Counted from the first letter of the stretch, positions 1 to 41,612 are shown. The stretch: DNA of 41,612 nucleotides from Deltaproteobacteria bacterium (GCA_002726945.1 PBTB01000073.1:1-41612); one strand, 5' to 3'. Notes: generated from the letters alone by a model not told the origin. A program made the numbers and translations.

Positions 1-158
1 ACAAATTACTTCCCAAATACTTTGTTCGCATCTCGCCAGCCAGTTGTAGCGGGTGAACTATTCAGCGGGAGTTGCCTTAGCAGGCGTATATCTGCCAAGG
101 GTAGCCCCTTACTGAAGGAAATACAAATATTTTAATCTCTTCCGGGGGTCTAATTTCC

Positions 159-172
159 CGCAGCTTGCTGCG
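159..172. repeat. REP-like palindromic hairpin motif CGCAGC-TT-GCTGCG, copy 1
   Basis: GGGTCTAATTTCCCGCAGCTTGCTGCGAATCAA in the non-coding stretch upstream of cheB. About 26 of 30 nt are shared with the copy at 38951-38980. Confidence 0.6.
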
Positions 173-201
173 AATCAATAAACCTAATGCCATACCTGCT
201 A

Positions 202-221
202 CCCCGCAGCTTGCTGCGGGG
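202..221. repeat. REP-like palindromic hairpin CCCCGCAGC-TT-GCTGCGGGG, copy 2
   Basis: Perfect 9-bp stem with a TT centre, 30 bp downstream of copy 1. Same GCAGCTTGCTGC core. Confidence 0.6.
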
Positions 222-383
222 CAGTTCATTTCGGCTATAGGATGAGGATGAGAAAGGAAGAGGTTCTTTCCTTGCATTGCAACCCGCAAGTTTATACCGT
301 GCTTTCCGAGTACTTGGGCACCCGGTTCCAATGAGAACTTTCCCCTGATTCTTTGCGAGTAGCACTCTGGTTTTCTCTCCTTG

Positions 384-1460: not shown

Positions 1461-1472
1461 ATCCTATAGCGA

Positions 1473-1504
1473 CAGGACTTACGCAAAATTTTGCGTAAGT
1501 CCTG
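1473..1504. terminator. 32-bp perfect palindrome CAGGACTTACGCAAAA/TTTTGCGTAAGTCCTG, possible bidirectional terminator or protein-binding site
   Basis: Every base 1473-1488 pairs with 1504-1489. Lies 13 bp after the cheB stop and is followed by the T-containing tail GAACTTTCTGAATTT. One half recurs at 26352-26370. Confidence 0.4.
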
Positions 1505-1518
1505 AACTTTCTGAATTT

Positions 1519-3969: not shown

Positions 3970-5853
3970 GTGACAACAACGAAAAAGTGGATTCTCACCA
4001 TCCTTGGAGTGGTGATTGTGCTGGGAGGTGCTTCCGGATTTGTGGTGAGCTATTTTGTGGGACAGCGAGTGGCGCAACGACTGTCGAACCCCGTGGAGCG
4101 TGGCGGCTGGACGCTCACGCCCGGACCTTTGCAGCACCAGTTGGGCTACTTCAACAGCCGCACGGTGGTTTCCGATTCGCGGTTGCAGTTTGGGGAAAAC
4201 GAACTGGCGATTCCAGAGTTCACCATCACGGTGCAACTCGATGGGGCGGAAGTCCACGCTCCCGAAATTTCCGGAAACCTCGTCCGGCCGGAGGGGCTGG
4301 CCCTGAAAATTGGCGATGCGCGGGTGCAGTTGCCCACGGACAGCCTGCGTCCGGAGGCTCCGTCACGTGAGGGGAGCTTGACGATGAGGCAGGTGGACCT
4401 GACTTCCACAGAGGAAAGTTTCTCGTTGGAGGATGTGACCCTCGACGCCACGCAGGCGCAACATGCGGTTTGGGACACGCTGAAGGTGCTGGTGGCGAAA
4501 CTTGGCTTCGATACTCCCAATGTGGCCGTGGTCGCCCAGTCGGTGCGGATGCAGCAGAATCACGATCCACTTGTCGAGAATCGCCTTGGCGTCATGGTGC
4601 AACTGGAGGTCGGCGAACTGAACGTCCGGAACCTCAGAAGCGAGGCGGCGCTTGACTGGAGCAATGTTGCCGCCAACGTGGACATGGAAATCAACGGTAC
4701 CCGCCGCACGGTGTTCTGGAACACGCTGCGCATGCCCAGCAACCAGCAACCAGCAACCGACTGGTGGGAGCATTACTCCGCCCAGTACGCCCCAGACGTG
4801 AAGCGGATGACGCTGCAATCGGGAACGCTTCAGTTTGGGGACAGTGCCGTCGAGTTGAACTTTGCACGTTTCAATGCCGAAGGGGAAAACACGGCGGAAG
4901 GTGACAAGACGCACACAAACTTCTCCGGGATGTGGGAAGCACTGAGCGCGACTTCCAGCGCGGGAGTGCAGGTGGGAGCCGAGCGTTTCACGCTGGAATC
5001 CGAAGGACGCTACCTCACCAAGCACTATCGCCAACTTTCGCGCTTGCTGGAGCAGGAACAGCTCTCCTTGTCCTTGGATCTTGTGAATACGCTCTATGCC
5101 TATCTGGAGGAAGTCCACTCCAACTTCCGCATGAACCTCACCAACCTGAGCTTCAAGAATGCCACCCAACCCGAACCGCTCATGGTTGATGAGGGAACGT
5201 TGGAACTGGACCTTCAGTTCAAGGACGGGGTGGGGGAGTTTGAACTGCGCCCAACCGTGCGCATCAGTCAACTGTCTACGTTGCAGCCCTTCGTGCCCGT
5301 GCAGATTCCCTTTGCCGCGCTTGCTCAGGAGTGGCGCTGGTACGGCAAGCAGTTGGACGTGTCGGCGTTTCAAGCATGGCTCACCGCAGCGGCAAAGGCA
5401 GAGCGTCTGGAAACCACGCTCGGCAGCGCTGATGACGGGCTGCGCACATTTGTGCAGGCACAACCGGACTCAGGTTTGAGTGTGGTGCTGAAAACGCAGG
5501 GGGGCCCGGAAATCTCCCTCTCGACACAACTGGTGCTGGACCAGCCGTGGCCGGCAGATTTCTCGCTCCAGCAACTCCGCCACGGAAGCGGTCTGCTCAA
5601 GCAGGCGTTACTGGAGGCCAGCACCTTGCGGGTGGAAGCAGTGGTGGATGACTCTGCAAAACTCGGCAGCATGCTCGATTACATGATGGGCGGTGGAGCC
5701 GGGCAGTTGTTCCTGCTGCAACTGCGGCCCTACACAAAGGTGCAGGGCAACGAGTTGCGCAGTGAACTGCTGGTGCAGCGGGGGCAGGCGAGCCTCAATG
5801 GACGTCCGGACGAACTCATCACTCTCATGATCCACGGGATGCTCGCCAACTGA
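3970..5853 (+). CDS. Membrane-anchored hypothetical protein, possibly YdgA/DUF945-like
   Basis: GTG start after AGGAAA. N-terminal TM helix ILTILGVVIVLGGASGFVV. The C-terminal ...LLVQRGQASLNGRPDELITLMIHGML resembles the YdgA C-terminus (...NGQITLNGQKMSLEDFVGMF) as I recall it. No catalytic motif seen. Confidence 0.6.
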   Translation: MTTTKKWILTILGVVIVLGGASGFVVSYFVGQRVAQRLSNPVERGGWTLTPGPLQHQLGYFNSRTVVSDSRLQFGENELAIPEFTITVQLDGAEVHAPEISGNLVRPEGLALKIGDARVQLPTDSLRPEAPSREGSLTMRQVDLTSTEESFSLEDVTLDATQAQHAVWDTLKVLVAKLGFDTPNVAVVAQSVRMQQNHDPLVENRLGVMVQLEVGELNVRNLRSEAALDWSNVAANVDMEINGTRRTVFWNTLRMPSNQQPATDWWEHYSAQYAPDVKRMTLQSGTLQFGDSAVELNFARFNAEGENTAEGDKTHTNFSGMWEALSATSSAGVQVGAERFTLESEGRYLTKHYRQLSRLLEQEQLSLSLDLVNTLYAYLEEVHSNFRMNLTNLSFKNATQPEPLMVDEGTLELDLQFKDGVGEFELRPTVRISQLSTLQPFVPVQIPFAALAQEWRWYGKQLDVSAFQAWLTAAAKAERLETTLGSADDGLRTFVQAQPDSGLSVVLKTQGGPEISLSTQLVLDQPWPADFSLQQLRHGSGLLKQALLEASTLRVEAVVDDSAKLGSMLDYMMGGGAGQLFLLQLRPYTKVQGNELRSELLVQRGQASLNGRPDELITLMIHGMLAN

Positions 5854-23628: not shown

Positions 23629-24326
23629 CTCCGTGCATTCCGTTTCCCTTCACTCCGGAAGACGAGGCGAGGGTGGTCCAGTGTCTCCGGGAGGATAGGC
23701 TGCTCGCTTTTCCAACGGAAACCGTCTATGGCCTTGGAGGCAACGCGCTCTCCGAAACCGTGGTGCAGCGAGTTTTCGCTGCAAAGGGGAGAGCGGCAGA
23801 AAAGGCGCTGCCCGTGTTGGCGACTCCGGAACAAGTCCGGGAACTGGCGGTTTGGAACGATGCCCGTGTTGATGCACTGATGGAGAAATTCTGGCCGGGG
23901 CCGTTGACACTCGTGCTACCCGCGCATCCTGAACTTCCGGAGTTTTTGCGGGGGCCAAACGACACGATTGCGGTGCGCCACTCTCCGGCTCCAGCGGTGC
24001 AGGCCTTGCTGGAACTTGGCGGAAAGCCGCTCATCGGCACCAGTGCAAACCGCAGTGGCCAACCCTCGTGCCGGAGTCCCAATGCCGTTGCTGGACAGCT
24101 TGGTGAGACGCTTGATTTGCTAGTGGACGGCGGTTTGGCATCGGAGACTCGGCCATCTACGCTTGTGCACTGGGATGGCGAATCCTTTGAGATTTTGCGG
24201 GAGGGCGTGTTATCTTCAGATGCTTTGGCTGCGTTTCTCTTGGTCGCGTTGGGCGGCCTACCGACGCAAGCGACCGATGCGGGTGTGCCACCCCGTGCTA
24301 TCCGAAAATCCGGAGACTCTCAATAA
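23625..24326 (+). CDS. tsaC: L-threonylcarbamoyladenylate synthase (TsaC/YrdC/Sua5 family)
   Basis: LAFPTETVYGLGGNA, KGRAAEKALPVL, WPGPLTLVL, TSANRSGQPS. Confidence 0.9.
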   Translation: MTPCIPFPFTPEDEARVVQCLREDRLLAFPTETVYGLGGNALSETVVQRVFAAKGRAAEKALPVLATPEQVRELAVWNDARVDALMEKFWPGPLTLVLPAHPELPEFLRGPNDTIAVRHSPAPAVQALLELGGKPLIGTSANRSGQPSCRSPNAVAGQLGETLDLLVDGGLASETRPSTLVHWDGESFEILREGVLSSDALAAFLLVALGGLPTQATDAGVPPRAIRKSGDSQ

Positions 24327-24543
24327 CTGGAGGATCACTGCTGTAGGTGTCAGTGGAGAGTGTGCACCAAGTCGTCGTGGCCCTCCTCTTCACTCAGCAA
24401 AGCCTTGATGGGAAACGGGATCATCTCCGTATTCCTGCTGGAAGGTTGTCAATTCAAAAGGATCATAATACACCAAAACAACACCGGATTCACCTATTTG
24501 CCGACATGGGCCAACATCGATTATCAGCGCAAGAGAAAGTGTG

Positions 24544-26247
24544 TTAGAGATTTGCGGATCCAACCTTGGAGTTACCGTTCCGCAAAATTTGTCCTGAGCG
24601 TTCTTCCGTGAGTTGATCATCCCTGAGGATAACCTGACCGTTGCAGACGGTCGCCTTGTATCCGGCTGCGTGCTGGATGAACCGCGGAGCCCCGAAAGGA
24701 AAGTCATGCACGATTTCCGGCATACGTTCTTCCAGCCGAGCCATATCAATGACATTGATATCGGCGCGCTTGCCAACCGCTAAAGTTCCTCGATCCTCAA
24801 GCCCCAAGACACTTGCCGGAACCGCACTTATCCGCCGAATCGCTTCCTGAATCGAATAGAGTCCGTTGTCCCTGTGCCAATGGGACAGGGTAAAGGTGGC
24901 CCAGCCTGAGTCAATCATCTGACTGACGTGGGCTCCGGCATCGCCAAGGCTGGGCATTGCCCAGTCTGTGGAGATTAAATCGGGTAGAGCCTCAAGGTCC
25001 ACATTAAAGAGCCGCATGTGAAACAGTGCTTTTCCATTGGTTTCATCGCTAATTCTCAGCCAGGTTTCCACCGGGTGCTCACCCGCTGCTTCGGCTAGAT
25101 CATACAAGCTCTCTGAGAGATTCTGTGTGTAGCAGGGCCGTTCTTCATCTCCCAGATAGAATGCGTTTTTCATCAAGGAGAGTTCCCTTTTCGAAAAAAC
25201 CATTAAATCCGCATCCTTAGCTTTTCCTTCTTCCACCAGTTTTTGACGAGTATCAGGGGTACGAATCGCCTGCATTCGTCCTTCAAGATCAAGTTCTTTT
25301 AACTTGCTCCATGCGGGTGATTTAAATGGGAAATTATTTGTTGAAATCCCGGTCAAAAAACCGCCACTGCGGGCAGGGGTGACTGAGGCGACGTTGAGGC
25401 CTTCGGCACGCATTTGCATCACGCGTTCGTTTGTGCGTTCCAGACCTAACTCCAGTGCAGAACTGAACAGCACCCCTCGTGCCATGCGGGCTTCATCGGC
25501 CAAGAGCTCCATTTCTGCATCGAAATCACTAAAATCTGAGACCGTTTGCATAATGCCTCCATGCACCCCGACTGCTTTTGCAATAGCCCGCAACTCATCA
25601 CGGTCGGCAAAGGTTCCGGGGATGGAACGACCATCAGGCAGTCGGTGTGCTGGAAACCGGTTGGTTGAAAAACCGATGGCACCTTCTTTGACGGACTGGC
25701 CCGCCAACTCGGCAATCTGTCGAATCTCTTCCTCCGTTGCAGGCTCCTCGACTGCACGCTCTCCCATGACGTAAAAGCGAATTGCACAATGCCCCACCAG
25801 CCCACAGATGTTGATTGAGGGTTTCAAGGTCTCAAGTGCATCAAGATAGCCCCCGTAGGACTCCCAGTTCCAGGGCAGTCCATGCAGAATTGCGTTTTTT
25901 GGGATATCCTCAACGGTTTCCATCATCCCTGCCAGGAATTCACGGTCTTTTGGCTTGCAAGGAGCAAAGGTGACCCCGCAGTTTCCAAGCAGGGCCGTGG
26001 TGACCCCGTGCCAACTCACCGAGGTGAGTTGAGGATCCCAGCCGATCTGCGCGTCAAGGTGGGTGTGCAAATCGATGAACCCTGGAGAGACGGTAAGGCC
26101 TTCAGCCCGTATTTCCTGTTTGCCCTTTCCATCGACTTTGCCGATCTCGACGATCTCGTCCCCGGCAATGGCGACATCTGCCTGAAACGGGTCTGCTCCG
26201 GTGCCGTCCACAACGGTGCCGTCCCTGATAATGAGGTCATGGTTCAT
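24544..26247 (-). CDS. N-acyl-D-amino-acid deacylase (D-aminoacylase), amidohydrolase superfamily
   Basis: MNHDLIIRDGTVVDGTGADPF...IAGDEIVEIG...PGFIDLHTHLD and family-typical length (567 aa). Confidence 0.88.
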   Translation of the reverse strand: MNHDLIIRDGTVVDGTGADPFQADVAIAGDEIVEIGKVDGKGKQEIRAEGLTVSPGFIDLHTHLDAQIGWDPQLTSVSWHGVTTALLGNCGVTFAPCKPKDREFLAGMMETVEDIPKNAILHGLPWNWESYGGYLDALETLKPSINICGLVGHCAIRFYVMGERAVEEPATEEEIRQIAELAGQSVKEGAIGFSTNRFPAHRLPDGRSIPGTFADRDELRAIAKAVGVHGGIMQTVSDFSDFDAEMELLADEARMARGVLFSSALELGLERTNERVMQMRAEGLNVASVTPARSGGFLTGISTNNFPFKSPAWSKLKELDLEGRMQAIRTPDTRQKLVEEGKAKDADLMVFSKRELSLMKNAFYLGDEERPCYTQNLSESLYDLAEAAGEHPVETWLRISDETNGKALFHMRLFNVDLEALPDLISTDWAMPSLGDAGAHVSQMIDSGWATFTLSHWHRDNGLYSIQEAIRRISAVPASVLGLEDRGTLAVGKRADINVIDMARLEERMPEIVHDFPFGAPRFIQHAAGYKATVCNGQVILRDDQLTEERSGQILRNGNSKVGSANL

Positions 26248-26390
26248 GGTGTGTCTTCAGTGATTATGTTTGGTGGTGTCCGAATCAAAACAGTGTCCAT
26301 TGTAGTGGCATGTATTGTATAAAACAATGTAATTCCCAATTCCTGAATGTCCAGGACTTACGAAAATTTTTTCTAAAGCACTGATATTAT

Positions 26391-26550
26391 GATAGTCGCC
26401 CTCTGGAGTGTTGTTCCTCTGAAAAATCGGGAACAATAACTGGAAACCGGGGGACACGCACCGGAAAACGCCGTCTCTTTGCAAAATCCCAACACTTGAC
26501 AGGGTGACCCCTGCTGAGGACAGGCGTCAACACTCCAGAGGGGGGCTGTC
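26391..26550 (+). mobile_element. MITE-like 160-bp repeat with about 24-bp terminal inverted repeats, copy A
   Basis: Left end GATAGTCGCCCTCTGGAGTGTTG. Right end CAACACTCCAGAGGGGGGCTGTC. The core differs from copy B at roughly 12 positions over about 120 bp (hand alignment). Confidence 0.75.
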
Positions 26551-26621
26551 CAGTTCTCAAACCCGAGTGCAACCCCGAACATTGCTAAAAACTCTCAAGT
26601 TCTTCACAGGGACGATATTTT

Positions 26622-27392
26622 CTAATCAACGCTAACCCCCTCCGCCGTCAGTACGGGTTTTCCCAAATACTGAACCAACTCCTGAAACGCTCCCAGAATT
26701 TCCGAATCTGACTCGGGATAGCGTAACCGCAGGCTAACCTGTCCCCAATGAGTTCCTGAGTGGGCGTAGATACCCAGACGTGCTTGCGGATAGTTTTCGT
26801 CAAACTGCCTCACGGCACCAGCAAGGTCGCCTTCCCGTGCCTCCAAGCGGACTTCGGCTCGTTTTGTTGGAATGGCGGCTTGCACTCTCCCAAACAGTGG
26901 CAGAATTTGTGGAACCATCGCTTTGAGCATCTTTGGAAATCCGGGAAACGCGAAAATGCCGGAGTGGTGGAACCCGGGGGCGCCATGGGGGTTCTTCAGC
27001 AATTCGCAGCCTTCCGGGAGCATCGTCATGTTCTGCCGACTCTCATTGAATTCTCCACCGTAACGTTCGGCCAGTAGCGCCCAGCAGTCCGGATGTGTGA
27101 CCACCTGCACTCCCAGCGCCGCAGCAATGCCTTCACGGGTGCAGTCGTCATGTGTGCCGCCGATGCCTCCGGAAACGCAGATCGGAAAGTGACTGGATCC
27201 CTTGAGTTGCTGAAGCCAGTGGGCGATCACCGCAATGTCATCCGGCAGGCTGAGTGCGACGTTGGCCGGGTGCCCCTGATCATGGAGCCAGTTGGTCAGC
27301 CATTGAGCGTTTTCATTACCCCGCTCTCCCAACACCAACTCATCCCCCACTGTTACCACCGCGGCACCAGCCTGATCCTCTTTTTTTGACAT
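26622..27392 (-). CDS. CinA-like MoCF-biosynthesis (molybdopterin-binding) domain protein, COG1058-like, without PncC deamidase domain
   Basis: VVTVGDELVLGERGNENAQWL...ICVSGGIGGTHDDCTREGIAAALG. True ATG at 27390-27392. The 51-codon upstream extension in ORF 26622..27545 reads through repeat copy B. Confidence 0.8.
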   Translation of the reverse strand: MSKKEDQAGAAVVTVGDELVLGERGNENAQWLTNWLHDQGHPANVALSLPDDIAVIAHWLQQLKGSSHFPICVSGGIGGTHDDCTREGIAAALGVQVVTHPDCWALLAERYGGEFNESRQNMTMLPEGCELLKNPHGAPGFHHSGIFAFPGFPKMLKAMVPQILPLFGRVQAAIPTKRAEVRLEAREGDLAGAVRQFDENYPQARLGIYAHSGTHWGQVSLRLRYPESDSEILGAFQELVQYLGKPVLTAEGVSVD

Positions 27393-27403
27393 GTTCAATT
27401 GCT

Positions 27404-27563
27404 GGTCGTCTCCCCCTCGAGGGTTGTTCCTCTGAAAATCGGGACCAATAACTGTAAACCGGGGGGAACGTACCGGAAAACACCGTCTCTTTGCAAAATC
27501 CCAACACTTGACAGGGTGAATCTTGCTGAGGACAGGCACCAACACTCAAGAGGGGGGGCTATC
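27404..27563 (+). mobile_element. MITE-like 160-bp repeat, copy B
   Basis: GGTCGTCTCCCCCTCGAGGGTTG ... CAACACTCAAGAGGGGGGGCTATC. Begins only 12 bp from the cinA-like start codon. Confidence 0.75.
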
Positions 27564-27758
27564 CAGATATTAAATATCTCTAATTTCACCGAGAGTCAAG
27601 CCCGATTGCACCATCCTTGGCGACTCCCTCCAACTGGAACCTCCGACCCTGCCGATTTCCCCGTTGACTTGCTCAAATCAAGGTGATACTCCTAAAGCCA
27701 AAGTACCGGGAGAAGAATCCCCATTGTCCTCAGAAAATTCACTTGACACTCGAACGGG

Positions 27759-28127
27759 GATAGTTCCCCTCTTGAGGGTTGTTCCTCTGAAAATCGGGAA
27801 AAATAACTGAAATCCGGAGCAACGCTCCGGAAAACGCAGTCTATCTTGTGCTTGGCAGAAAATTAGTCAACTACATGATATTTAATGGTATTCACCTATT
27901 TTCAAGAAACGAGGATTTTGGGGAAACTCATCAAAAATCCCATTTTTTGCTGATTTTGGCCATCTGAACACGGTATCAAACAAATCCTCATCCTGTTAAA
28001 TTCAAGAAATATCGTTTAATATCAGAAATTTGTGTATTTTATTCCAAGCACTATCTTGCAAAATCCCAACCCTTTACAGGATGAATTTTGCTGAGGACAG
28101 GCACCAACACTCCAGAGGAGGACTATC
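27759..28127 (+). mobile_element. MITE-like repeat, copy C, interrupted by a nested insertion
   Basis: GATAGTTCCCCTCTTGAGGGTTG ... CAACACTCCAGAGGAGGACTATC. Removing 27849-28058 restores a 159-bp element colinear with copies A and B. Confidence 0.75.
27849..28050. mobile_element. 202-bp AT-rich non-autonomous TIR element nested in copy C, with 8-bp target-site duplication
   Basis: Direct repeat CTATCTTG at 27841-27848 and 28051-28058. Ends are TGCTTGGCAGAAAAT... and ...ATTTTATTCCAAGCA, matching at about 14 of the first 17 nt as inverted repeats. 65 G+C of 202 nt by my count. Confidence 0.8.
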
Positions 28128-28250
28128 GACTTTTTACGAGCCCATCAAATGTAAAAACCAGAAGACGTTATAGCACGGTTGCACCTCCAGAAGACCGCTT
28201 TGAAGCCAGCACTCACTTCGGTCATGGCCGGAGCTTTCATGTCCTTCAGG

Positions 28251-28279
28251 TTGACGTTCGCCTCCTGAATCCATAACCT
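28251..28279 (+). promoter_or_regulatory. Candidate sigma70-type promoter for the peptide ABC operon
   Basis: TTGACG (28251-28256), 17-nt spacer, TAACCT (28274-28279). Lies just upstream of AAGGAG and the binding-protein start. Motif match only. Confidence 0.3.
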
Positions 28280-28296
28280 CAACAAGGAGTATGATC

Positions 28297-29874
28297 ATGT
28301 CCAAAAAAACCACGATCCTTGCCATCGCACTTGCGTTTTGCACGTCATTGTTCGCCGCGAATCCGGTGTCGGCAGAATCCACCCTCCGAGTGGTGATGCA
28401 CTCGGATCTGAAGATCGTTGACCCGGTCTGGACCACCGCTTACATGTCCCGGAACTACGGATACATGGTGTATGATACACTGTTTGCACTTGACAGCAAC
28501 CTGCACGTCCAGCCGCAAATGGTGGGGGATTATTCGGTGAGTGACAACAAACTCACCTACACCATGACTTTGCGCGACGGACTGATGTTCCACGACGGCG
28601 CACCTGTCACTGCCGCAGATGCTGTGGCTTCTCTCAAACGTTGGGGGCAAAAAGACGGGATGGGGCAAATGTTGATGGAATACACTGCCGATTTGAGCGC
28701 AGTCGACGACAAGACTCTGAAATTGATCTTGAAAAAGCCGTTCGGGCTGGTGCTGGACGCGCTGGCGAAGCCGAGTTCCAACGTGCCCTTCATCATGCCC
28801 AAGCGTGTGGCGGACACTCCGGCGTCGGAACAGATCAAGGACCACACGGGTTCCGGACCCTTCATCTTCAAGGAGGACGAGTGGAAACCAGGCGACCGCA
28901 CGGTGTTCGTGAAGAACCCGAACTACAAGGCACGGAGTGAGCCGTCGAGTTGGATGTCAGGCAGCAAGGCCGTGAACGTGGACCGCGTGGAGTGGATTTC
29001 CATCAAGGACCACCAGACCGCCGTCAATGCCCTGCTCGCAGGCGAGATTGATTACATGGAATCGGTCCCGCATGACCTGCTTCCGTTGCTGGACGCGGAC
29101 CCGAATGTCCAGACAGCGGTGCTGAATCCGCTGGGGAATCAGTACATGTACCGCATGAACCATCTGCATCCGCCGTTTGACGATGTCCGGGTTCGCCGTG
29201 CCGCCATGTGGGCTGTCAACCAGAAGGACTTTCTGCAAGGCGTGATCGGCAATCCGAAGTACTACAAGGAATGCGCCGCCATGTTCTTCTGCGACACCCC
29301 GCTGGCCACGGACAAGGGAGCGGAGATCATGATGCGCTCGGACTACGAAAAGTCGAAGGCACTGCTGAAGGAAGCCGGGTACGACGGCACCCCGATTGTG
29401 CTGATGCACTCCACCGACCTGAATGTCCTTGCCAATCTGGCCCCCGTGGCCAAGCAGAATCTGGAGCGCGGCGGCTTCAAGGTGGACATGCAGTCAATGG
29501 ACTGGCAGACCCTTGTCTCCCGGCGTTCCAAGCAGGATCCTCCGGGGAAGGTCGGCTGGAACCTCTTCATGACTTCCTGGCAATCTCTGGACATCCTCAA
29601 TCCTATCATGGCAGCAGGTTACCGGGCAAACTGTAACAAGGCGTGGTTCGGCTGGCCCTGCGACACGACAATGGAAGTTCTACGCAAGGCCTTTGCCGAG
29701 GAGCCGGATCCGGCACAACAGAAGGCCATCGCCGAGGCGATTCAGATCCGTGCTATGGAGTACGGCACTCACGGTCATGGAGGTCAGTGGCTGGATGTCA
29801 CGGCATGGCGCAAGGATCAGATTTCCAATGTCCCAAATGCTCCGCTTCCGGTGCAATGGAGCATTTCAAAGTAA
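28297..29874 (+). CDS. Peptide/nickel ABC transporter substrate-binding protein (family 5, DppA/OppA-like)
   Basis: Signal peptide MSKKTTILAIALAFCTSLFAANPVSA. Family-5 SBP-like sequence throughout. ATG at 28297 has better spacing from AAGGAG (28284-28289) than ATG at 28291. Confidence 0.9.
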   Translation: MSKKTTILAIALAFCTSLFAANPVSAESTLRVVMHSDLKIVDPVWTTAYMSRNYGYMVYDTLFALDSNLHVQPQMVGDYSVSDNKLTYTMTLRDGLMFHDGAPVTAADAVASLKRWGQKDGMGQMLMEYTADLSAVDDKTLKLILKKPFGLVLDALAKPSSNVPFIMPKRVADTPASEQIKDHTGSGPFIFKEDEWKPGDRTVFVKNPNYKARSEPSSWMSGSKAVNVDRVEWISIKDHQTAVNALLAGEIDYMESVPHDLLPLLDADPNVQTAVLNPLGNQYMYRMNHLHPPFDDVRVRRAAMWAVNQKDFLQGVIGNPKYYKECAAMFFCDTPLATDKGAEIMMRSDYEKSKALLKEAGYDGTPIVLMHSTDLNVLANLAPVAKQNLERGGFKVDMQSMDWQTLVSRRSKQDPPGKVGWNLFMTSWQSLDILNPIMAAGYRANCNKAWFGWPCDTTMEVLRKAFAEEPDPAQQKAIAEAIQIRAMEYGTHGHGGQWLDVTAWRKDQISNVPNAPLPVQWSISK

Positions 29875-38881: not shown

Positions 38882-38958
38882 CAATCCTTTACAAGGTTTG
38901 CCTCCGGGCGTGGCTTGTTGGCCCTCGGAGTTGAGTTCAATCTCTTTCGGGTCTGATT

Positions 38959-38975
38959 CCCCGCAGCTTGCTGCG
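38959..38975. repeat. REP-like palindromic hairpin motif, copy 3
   Basis: GGGTCTGATTCCCCGCAGCTTGCTGCGTCAAGA has the same core and left flank as copy 1 at 145-176. Confidence 0.6.
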
Positions 38976-39016
38976 TCAAGAAATTCGCGGGAGGTCGCTC
39001 TCAATGGAGAAGCATT

Positions 39017-41429: not shown

Positions 41430-41548
41430 GATAGTCCCCCTCTTGAGTGTTGGTGCCTGTCCTCAGCAAAATTCGTCCCCTGTAAAGTTTGGGATTTTGC
41501 AAAGAGACGGCGTTTTCCGGTACGTTTCCCCCGGTTTACAGTTATGGT
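41430..41548 (-). mobile_element. MITE-like repeat, copy D (inverted orientation, truncated or interrupted)
   Basis: GGATAGTCCCCCTCTTGAGTGTTGGTGCCTGTCCTCAGCAAAATTC...CCGGTTTACAGTTAT is colinear with the reverse complement of copy B for about 117 bp. Similarity then stops abruptly. Confidence 0.7.
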
Positions 41549-41612
41549 AAAAGCTACTAGTTATAGGACAAATTTAGACTGGGATACAAACAGTCAAACA
41601 ATTGATATTAAA

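Follow-up and report, generated by a model that had tools for sequence, protein, structure and literature searches.

The 41,612-nucleotide stretch of DNA analysed here (PBTB01000073.1:1-41612, assembly GCA_002726945.1; its whole length is called the window) comes from a marine bacterium labelled SAR324 cluster or Deltaproteobacteria in public records, and contains four copies, A to D, of an intergenic repeat of 159-160 bp. Our best explanation, to which we assign a probability of roughly 0.88, is that these repeats are copies of a 159-bp type II miniature inverted-repeat transposable element (MITE) mobilised by the transposase of a 1.19-kb insertion sequence (IS) of the IS1 family. The MITE family is new and of an ordinary, well-known kind; we found no name or record for it in the searched literature or in Rfam, and no paper in that literature mentioning both SAR324 and MITEs.

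All four copies were located by nhmmer at the positions given in the initial annotation, which had described a MITE-like repeat from the window sequence alone. A first profile, built on A, B and both halves of C, matched A at 26390-26550 (E=1e-54), B at 27404-27563 (E=7e-55) and D at 41430-41546 on the minus strand (E=2e-33), and aligned to C in two pieces, 27759-27856 and 28054-28127. E-values ranged from 1e-50 to 1e-55 for A and B, from 1e-33 to 1e-36 for D, and from 1e-21 to 1e-25 for each half of C. The alignment of many copies gives element ends of G[G/A]TAGTC...GACTATC and, in every full copy, terminal inverted repeats (TIRs) of 23 nt; the TIRs reported earlier are real, at 23 rather than about 24 nt, as the first G of the 24-nt consensus is variable. 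Copies A and B share 87% identity over their full length and 90% across a 123-nt core. The 1-nt indels between copies, and the lack of any open reading frame (ORF) inside a copy in the ORF list, agree with the earlier view that the element is non-coding. The copies are as follows.

26391-26550, plus strand: MITE copy A, 160 bp; nhmmer E=1e-54 over the full model; TIRs at 26391-26413 and 26528-26550; no target-site duplication (TSD).
27404-27563, plus strand: MITE copy B, 160 bp; nhmmer E=7e-55; degenerate TIRs; no TSD.
27759-27848, plus strand: MITE copy C, left part; nhmmer E=6e-22; model positions 2-89.
28051-28127, plus strand: MITE copy C, right part; nhmmer E=4e-21; model positions 87-159; starts with the duplicated CTATCTTG.
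41430-41544, minus strand: MITE copy D; nhmmer E=2e-36; model positions ~42-159; its other end lies outside the window, past a nested element.

The contigs found at 99.9% identity to the window are from Tara Oceans metagenomes. In NCBI genome-bin records, proteins identical or nearly identical to those encoded here bear the label 'SAR324 cluster bacterium' or 'Deltaproteobacteria bacterium'. Among species-representative genomes, 14 contigs contain an exact match to a 21-base pattern from the core, 13 of them from one Tara genome bin, and the family has at least 15 matches in one Tara Oceans genome bin. Scanning metagenome contigs by TIR pattern yielded at least 120 loci (individual loci and contigs carry L numbers below), and the 159-bp element is present on about 45 metagenome contigs among the matches listed. 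As expected of a repeat that breaks assemblies, many matches to the core pattern fall at contig ends.

The flanks of these copies record transposition. Both flanks can be read for about 40 distinct full copies: 11 carry perfect 8-bp TSDs, one has a 9-bp TSD and another matches at 7/8, and the duplicated sequences are 71% A+T, against ~60% G+C for the window. Searching with the two flanks of each copy joined gave one clean filled/empty pair, in which L076 reads ...GGTTCGAATCCC[159 bp]CGAATCCCATTT... and L085 reads ...GGTTCGAATCCCATTT..., with flanks 97.6-100% identical; no tRNA is predicted at this insertion site. Such TSDs and an empty site are what transposition with an 8-bp staggered cut leaves behind. 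Thus the element is multi-copy, in one bin and across metagenome contigs, and polymorphic for presence and absence, as the L076/L085 pair demonstrates. The earlier remark that TSDs are missing holds for the four window copies and fails for the family.

The partner IS was not found by TIR-only matches in the first 28 loci and appeared only through the metagenome scan. Among the matches listed, 80 TIR matches have the 23-nt terminus without the MITE core, and in 26 TIR matches the terminus is followed by an ORF of ~145-170 aa that is InsA-like and carries a CPN..C...C..C zinc-finger motif. Upstream of this ORF, where read, there are a Shine-Dalgarno sequence and a stretch resembling a promoter, TTGA..(N)..TATACT. 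An inverted partner terminus ~1164 nt downstream delimits 22 complete elements of 1183-1193 bp among the matches listed. Their TIRs are 23 nt long and start with GG or GA, and 4 of the 22 have perfect TSDs of 8 bp, the same length as those of the MITE. The first ORF ends in ...NKGEKK above a conserved G-A7-G run, and a -1 shift at A7 opens a second frame that stays open to within ~30 nt of the IS end; the resulting fusion proteins measure 362-386 aa in 14 of the 22 elements, and the fusion is likewise open in the IS on contig L087. This arrangement suggests that the transposase would be made by frameshifting on the A7 run.

Profile searches and alignments place this protein near the IS1 family. 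NCBIfam NF033558 (IS1 family transposase) matched with E=4e-15 to 4e-18, and NF050000 (IS1/IS1595 zinc domain) scored above its cut-off. In tblastn the protein showed 25-30% identity, over >90% of its length, to plasmid genes annotated as IS1 family transposase. Using hhalign, we obtained a probability of 90% (E=1.8e-6) against E. coli K-12 InsA and of 85% (E=6e-6) against E. coli K-12 InsB, the latter on an ER..N..R....R..RK(S/T)L.FSK motif.

MITE and IS meet on contig L087, where two full MITE copies accompany an intact 1192-bp IS; the left end of this IS agrees with the MITE consensus terminus at 23/23 positions. The first 2.2 kb of L087 are 97% identical to L165, and L165 is 99.8% identical to the window across 7.5 kb, so L087 comes from a close relative. 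The conserved 23-nt terminus is common to ISs whose transposases are ~51-56% identical to that of the L087 IS. The same IS as in L087 occurs in 81 indexed blocks of a public assembly collection; nine complete copies of the L087 type were examined, all from marine metagenomes, and they have nine different flanks.

Similarity between MITE and IS ends ~25 nt from each terminus. A type II MITE is defined by IS similarity limited to the terminal repeats (PMC10969869); since the similarity here is confined to the TIRs, the 159-bp element classes, on sequence grounds, as a type II MITE. Two other origins were ruled out. The element is not a simple internal-deletion derivative of the sampled ISs, because its core lacks similarity to IS interiors beyond ~25 nt, and the copies are not full ISs decayed in place, because all share one core unrelated to the IS. 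The element has every attribute of a MITE that could be tested, namely length, absence of coding capacity, TIRs, TSD, multiple copies and a cognate IS. Further copies in relatives, empty versus filled sites and an IS with matching ends had all been proposed as checks on the MITE-like reading, and each of them was found.

Our model is the following. The MITE would supply only its two 23-nt TIRs, the ends recognised by the IS transposase. The IS would make an InsA-like zinc-finger and helix-turn-helix (HTH) protein and, by a -1 frameshift on A7, an InsAB'-type DDE transposase of ~365 aa. Acting in trans, this transposase would bind the MITE ends, insert the element at AT-rich sites and duplicate 8 bp (rarely 9). 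We hypothesize that this particular transposase is the mobiliser, as the shared ends suggest, and the detailed chemistry of cutting and joining is likewise a proposal.

Several results weigh against this explanation. Both MITE ends are of the IS left-end type and do not form a left/right pair. The NF033558 score is 55-66 bits against a cut-off of 100, and Pfam DDE_Tnp_IS1 matches with E=0.005-0.012 at 16-18 bits, below its gathering score of 24. IS1 ends read GGnnnTG, and the ends of the partner IS, GGTAGTC, differ in having C as the seventh base. A clean TSD is missing in about two thirds of all copies; possible reasons are their age, recombination among copies and chimeras from short-read assembly across repeats. 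Within the window, no TSD was found in the flanks of A, B, C or D, no transposase with these ends is present (as had been stated before), and transposition of these four copies themselves would follow from their family membership only. Because its scores lie below curated whole-protein cut-offs, we class the partner IS, from sequence comparison, as a divergent IS1-family branch rather than a typical member.

Set beside known systems, the partner IS resembles IS1-family elements such as E. coli IS1 and ISAba3-like elements in its N-terminal zinc-finger and HTH ORF and in the A-run at the ORF junction that leads to a fused transposase; IS1-family elements have an InsA/InsAB' organisation (PMC8944449). 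Its C-terminal ER..N..R..RK(S/T)L.FSK motif aligns with E. coli InsB, and it shares TIRs of ~23 nt starting with GG and 8-bp TSDs, much as an IS1-family relative of ISAba3 has 24-bp TIRs and 8-bp TSDs (PMC6382973). It differs in its identity of only 25-30% to annotated IS1-family transposases, in scores below the cut-offs of curated hidden Markov models, in its length (1.19 kb versus 768 bp for the annotated E. coli IS1A) and in its GGTAGTC ends, and the MITE has the TIR alone in common with it, both ends being left-type.

The SAR324 element is like type II MITEs such as MITEAba12 (113 bp, 9-bp TSD, ISAba12 TIRs) and Sulfolobus SM3A (164 bp) in being small, non-coding and TIR-bounded, with the TSD length of its cognate IS; also shared are IS similarity in the TIRs alone, multiple copies and location next to genes. 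It differs from them in IS family, host lineage and sequence. The Correia elements of Neisseria are ~100-155 bp long, with 26-bp TIRs and a TA duplication. The SAR324 element is like these in size, long TIRs, intergenic site and the long hairpin it would form if co-transcribed, and differs in its 8-bp TSD at varied AT-rich sites (rather than TA) and in the existence of a cognate IS; in addition, no promoter or terminator function was detected in copies A and B by the scan described below.

The strong predicted fold bears on a different explanation, raised as an alternative RNA function in the initial annotation: the repeat would be a structured non-coding or cis-regulatory RNA, kept for the function of its hairpin and conserved 113-nt core, for example as a cinA 5' leader. 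The plus strand folds at -70.7 kcal/mol (z=-4.8), the core is ~90% conserved among copies, and copy B lies directly upstream of a gene. The strong hairpin is due to the TIRs. The TIR pair forms the outer stem and shows equal conservation at the ends of the protein-coding IS, and the one change on both sides of this stem (T/A to G/C at TIR position 15) marks a single subfamily. Across 25 diverse copies the RNAalifold covariation term was -0.16 kcal/mol, with no support past the TIR stem. No Rfam family matched at its gathering score in the window, and none at E<=10 in A, B or the MITE halves of C, so that the suggested check against catalogued RNA families came out negative. Copies are found in either orientation, some upstream and some downstream of genes, and their TSDs and empty site show insertion by transposition. 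Moreover, copy D has ~13% of its positions changed, together with an internal deletion, in a strain that shares 99% identity with the window, which speaks against strong sequence constraint and for exchange between copies. A promoter/terminator scan, whose counts were not above those of shuffled sequences, found promoter-like sites in no copy, no terminator-like hairpin with a T-run in A or B, and one weak such hairpin in C on the minus strand. Taken together, we regard an RNA function as highly unlikely.

A second way to account for a palindromic intergenic repeat would be a REP/BIME- or ERIC-like sequence, either spread by a RAYT-type (non-DDE) enzyme or kept as a terminator or mRNA stabiliser. 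The copies are intergenic, palindromic overall and ~160 bp long, and some lie within palindromic host sequence (L005, L012). We give this explanation next to no probability: 8-bp TSDs, a precise empty site and termini identical to those of an IS with a DDE transposase are not REP-type features, and A and B lack the terminator-like hairpin.

We return to the type II MITE and to the state of its copies in the window. The TIR arms of copy A are 87% complementary and match the IS left end at 20/23 and 18/23 positions; the left TIR of copy B matches at 19/23, and its right TIR has a 1-nt insertion. Since the TIRs carry 3-5 mismatches or an indel, no TSD has been kept, and C and D were split by later small MITEs, the four window copies are probably fossils, old and immobile. 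Their present effects are passive.

ORFs and public gene calls agree with the earlier statement that all copies are intergenic. The gene between A and B is the following.

26622-27392, minus strand: cinA-like (MoCF_biosynth) gene, context between A and B; identified by translation and Pfam PF00994.

Copy A lies between the stop of this gene and the start of an amidohydrolase gene. The left end of copy B, at 27404, is 11 nt upstream of the cinA-like ATG (27392), beside a start codon as previously noted, and B is the sequence directly upstream of the cinA-like gene. Copy C is upstream of a peptide-binding-protein gene, and copy D downstream of coaBC.

In some public gene calls the cinA-like protein is 305-307 aa long and starts within copy B (26622-27545, minus strand), an extension of ~50 codons into the repeat made by some gene callers, and the form in NCBI records has 256 aa, with its start at 27392. 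The MITE is probably responsible for the longer form, as an annotation artefact, and the repeat thereby misleads gene callers.

Close strains differ at the copies. Comparing window 26386-27570 and 41430 onward with contigs 97-99.9% identical to the window, we observed that flanking genes change exactly at MITE edges in L017, L018/L019, L026/L027, L028 and L165. Two of these configurations each appear in independent assemblies from different pipelines. Either copies recombined within the population, or short-read assembly created chimeras across repeats. Within this population, gene-order differences between close strains fall at the copies.

This variation also bears on the possibility that A, the cinA-like gene and B (26391-27563, 1173 bp) form a MITE-bounded composite transposon, in which an IS1-type transposase used the outer TIRs with the cinA-like gene as cargo. 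Because A and B are in direct orientation, their outer ends make up a proper inverted pair, and the unit is close in length to the IS (1173 versus 1192 bp). The flanking 10 nt, ctgatattat (26381-26390) and cagatattaa (27564-27573), match at 8/10; of 1560 non-cognate flank pairs, 2 match this well. Both copies are present on every contig with this cinA protein, and the G+C of the region is below that of its surroundings. On the other side, copies of the family have a TSD of 8 bp (9 bp once), whereas the repeat around this unit spans 10 bp and is imperfect; the two outer TIRs are degenerate; and a second genomic location of the unit was not found. The strain variants alter one side at a time, the A side in L017 and the B side in L018/L019, where B is a hybrid copy, and such one-sided changes fit recombination between copies, not movement of the whole unit. 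We consider a composite transposon improbable. If it were real, it would have moved the cinA-like gene into a low-G+C, possibly acquired islet, and the imperfect 10-bp repeat would be its target duplication.

Empty sites for A-D were not found among contigs with neighbouring window proteins. All contigs with the cinA gene carry A and B; amidohydrolase contigs diverge at window position 26325, next to other ISs and not at the MITE edge; and those substrate-binding-protein contigs that reach far enough upstream all carry C with its nested insert. No orthologous locus without cinA was found via amidohydrolase homologues, the nearest of which are 79-80% identical and have an unrelated context where checked.

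The MITE family matters in several ways for work on these genomes. It gives a name to an unannotated repeat at which assemblies of SAR324-type genome bins break, with several matches at contig ends in the Tara genome bin and the metagenome set, and it links a MITE with one particular IS1-family transposase, apparently intact and common in ocean metagenomes. The wider IS1 branch has one very conserved 23-nt terminus across diverged ISs, together with at least 11 other MITE-like elements. The known working of MITEs is unchanged by these results.

These other elements, at least 11 in number, are TIR-bounded and 139-225 bp long and have an identical 23-nt terminus and unrelated cores (L046, L069, L072, L075, L077, L098, L106, L111, L123, L128 and L140). 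They lie on metagenome contigs without the 159-bp SAR324-type element, from other environments. Evidently, this IS1 branch gave rise to MITEs repeatedly.

Two of the window copies have received insertions of their own.

27849-28050, plus strand: unrelated 202-bp TIR element in copy C; ends TGCTTGGNANAAAAT...CCAAGCA; flanked by the 8-bp TSD CTATCTTG.
41545-41612, no strand assigned: ~108-bp TIR element in copy D, start only; ends T[A/G]GTAAAAGC...ACTA; TA duplication.

Copy C, first described as one repeat at 27759-28127, keeps these coordinates and is a single 159-bp copy broken by the foreign 202-bp element, whose TSD copies lie at 27841-27848 (the last 8 nt of the left part of C) and 28051-28058. 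A second copy of this element, 93% identical, is found on a different contig (L137:1673-1864). A further fragment of the repeat had been reported just left of C, at 27724-27745, and is not borne out, as nhmmer gave no match even at E<=10 on that 196-nt stretch alone.

Copy D, previously placed at 41430-41548, is an inverted copy as described and is not truncated; it is broken from 41545 by the ~108-bp element, which runs out of the window end. Complete D, beyond the window end, is present in L021, L022 and L025, longer contigs from the same strain, and uninterrupted D in L024 and L028. The ~108-bp element occupies the D site in L021, L022, L023 and L025 and is absent from L024, an otherwise identical contig. 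Its ends can also be written TAGTAAAAGC...ACTA, with a copy at L021:11410-11515. Further copies occur in L076, L100, L094 and L002; the diverged relative in L094 sits in the identical TA of another MITE copy, in opposite orientation, and in L002 a diverged relative is inserted where a canonical IS1-like element ends. TA duplications are characteristic of IS630/Tc1-type elements.

Other mobile sequences accompany the MITE. A 2.2-kb unit consisting of a MITE, a 538-aa DUF4277 transposase gene and a second MITE is present at L087:529-2708, L110:97-2278 and L165:79-2257 with ~97% identity; in strain L165 it lies directly left of copy A, and its transposase cluster has 399 members. On L087, directly after the 1192-bp IS, positions 4040-4954 hold the start of a more canonical IS1-like element with the end GGTAGTGGCT, an InsA-like ORF (4059-4373) and an InsB-like ...RWNNTLRQRVGRFVRETLSFSKK motif. 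In other strains (L150, L151, L152), homology to the window stops at 26325/26326, 65 bp before copy A. Past 26325 these strains have a common ~70-nt sequence, in L150 leading to a 448-aa DDE_Tnp_1_4 transposase gene, and position 26325 looks like another IS insertion point beside the MITE.

The window contains two more small repeat families. The first, containing GGGTCTRATTYCCCGCAGCTTGCTGCG, occurs at window 125-231 and 38936-38983 and at L078:6190-6294. The second is a 34-nt perfect palindrome, TCAGGACTTACGCAAAATTTTGCGTAAGTCCTGA, found at window 1472-1505 and 26352-26384 and at L133:5600-5652; a degenerate copy of this palindrome adjoins copy A.

Finally, window 24000-29000 has 51-55% G+C, compared with ~60% elsewhere. 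The amidohydrolase encoded there (24544-26247) has no homologue between 100% and 80% identity, and its next best matches, at 75-79%, belong to Gammaproteobacteria or Pseudomonadales where labelled. This region may be a horizontally acquired islet edged by mobile elements.

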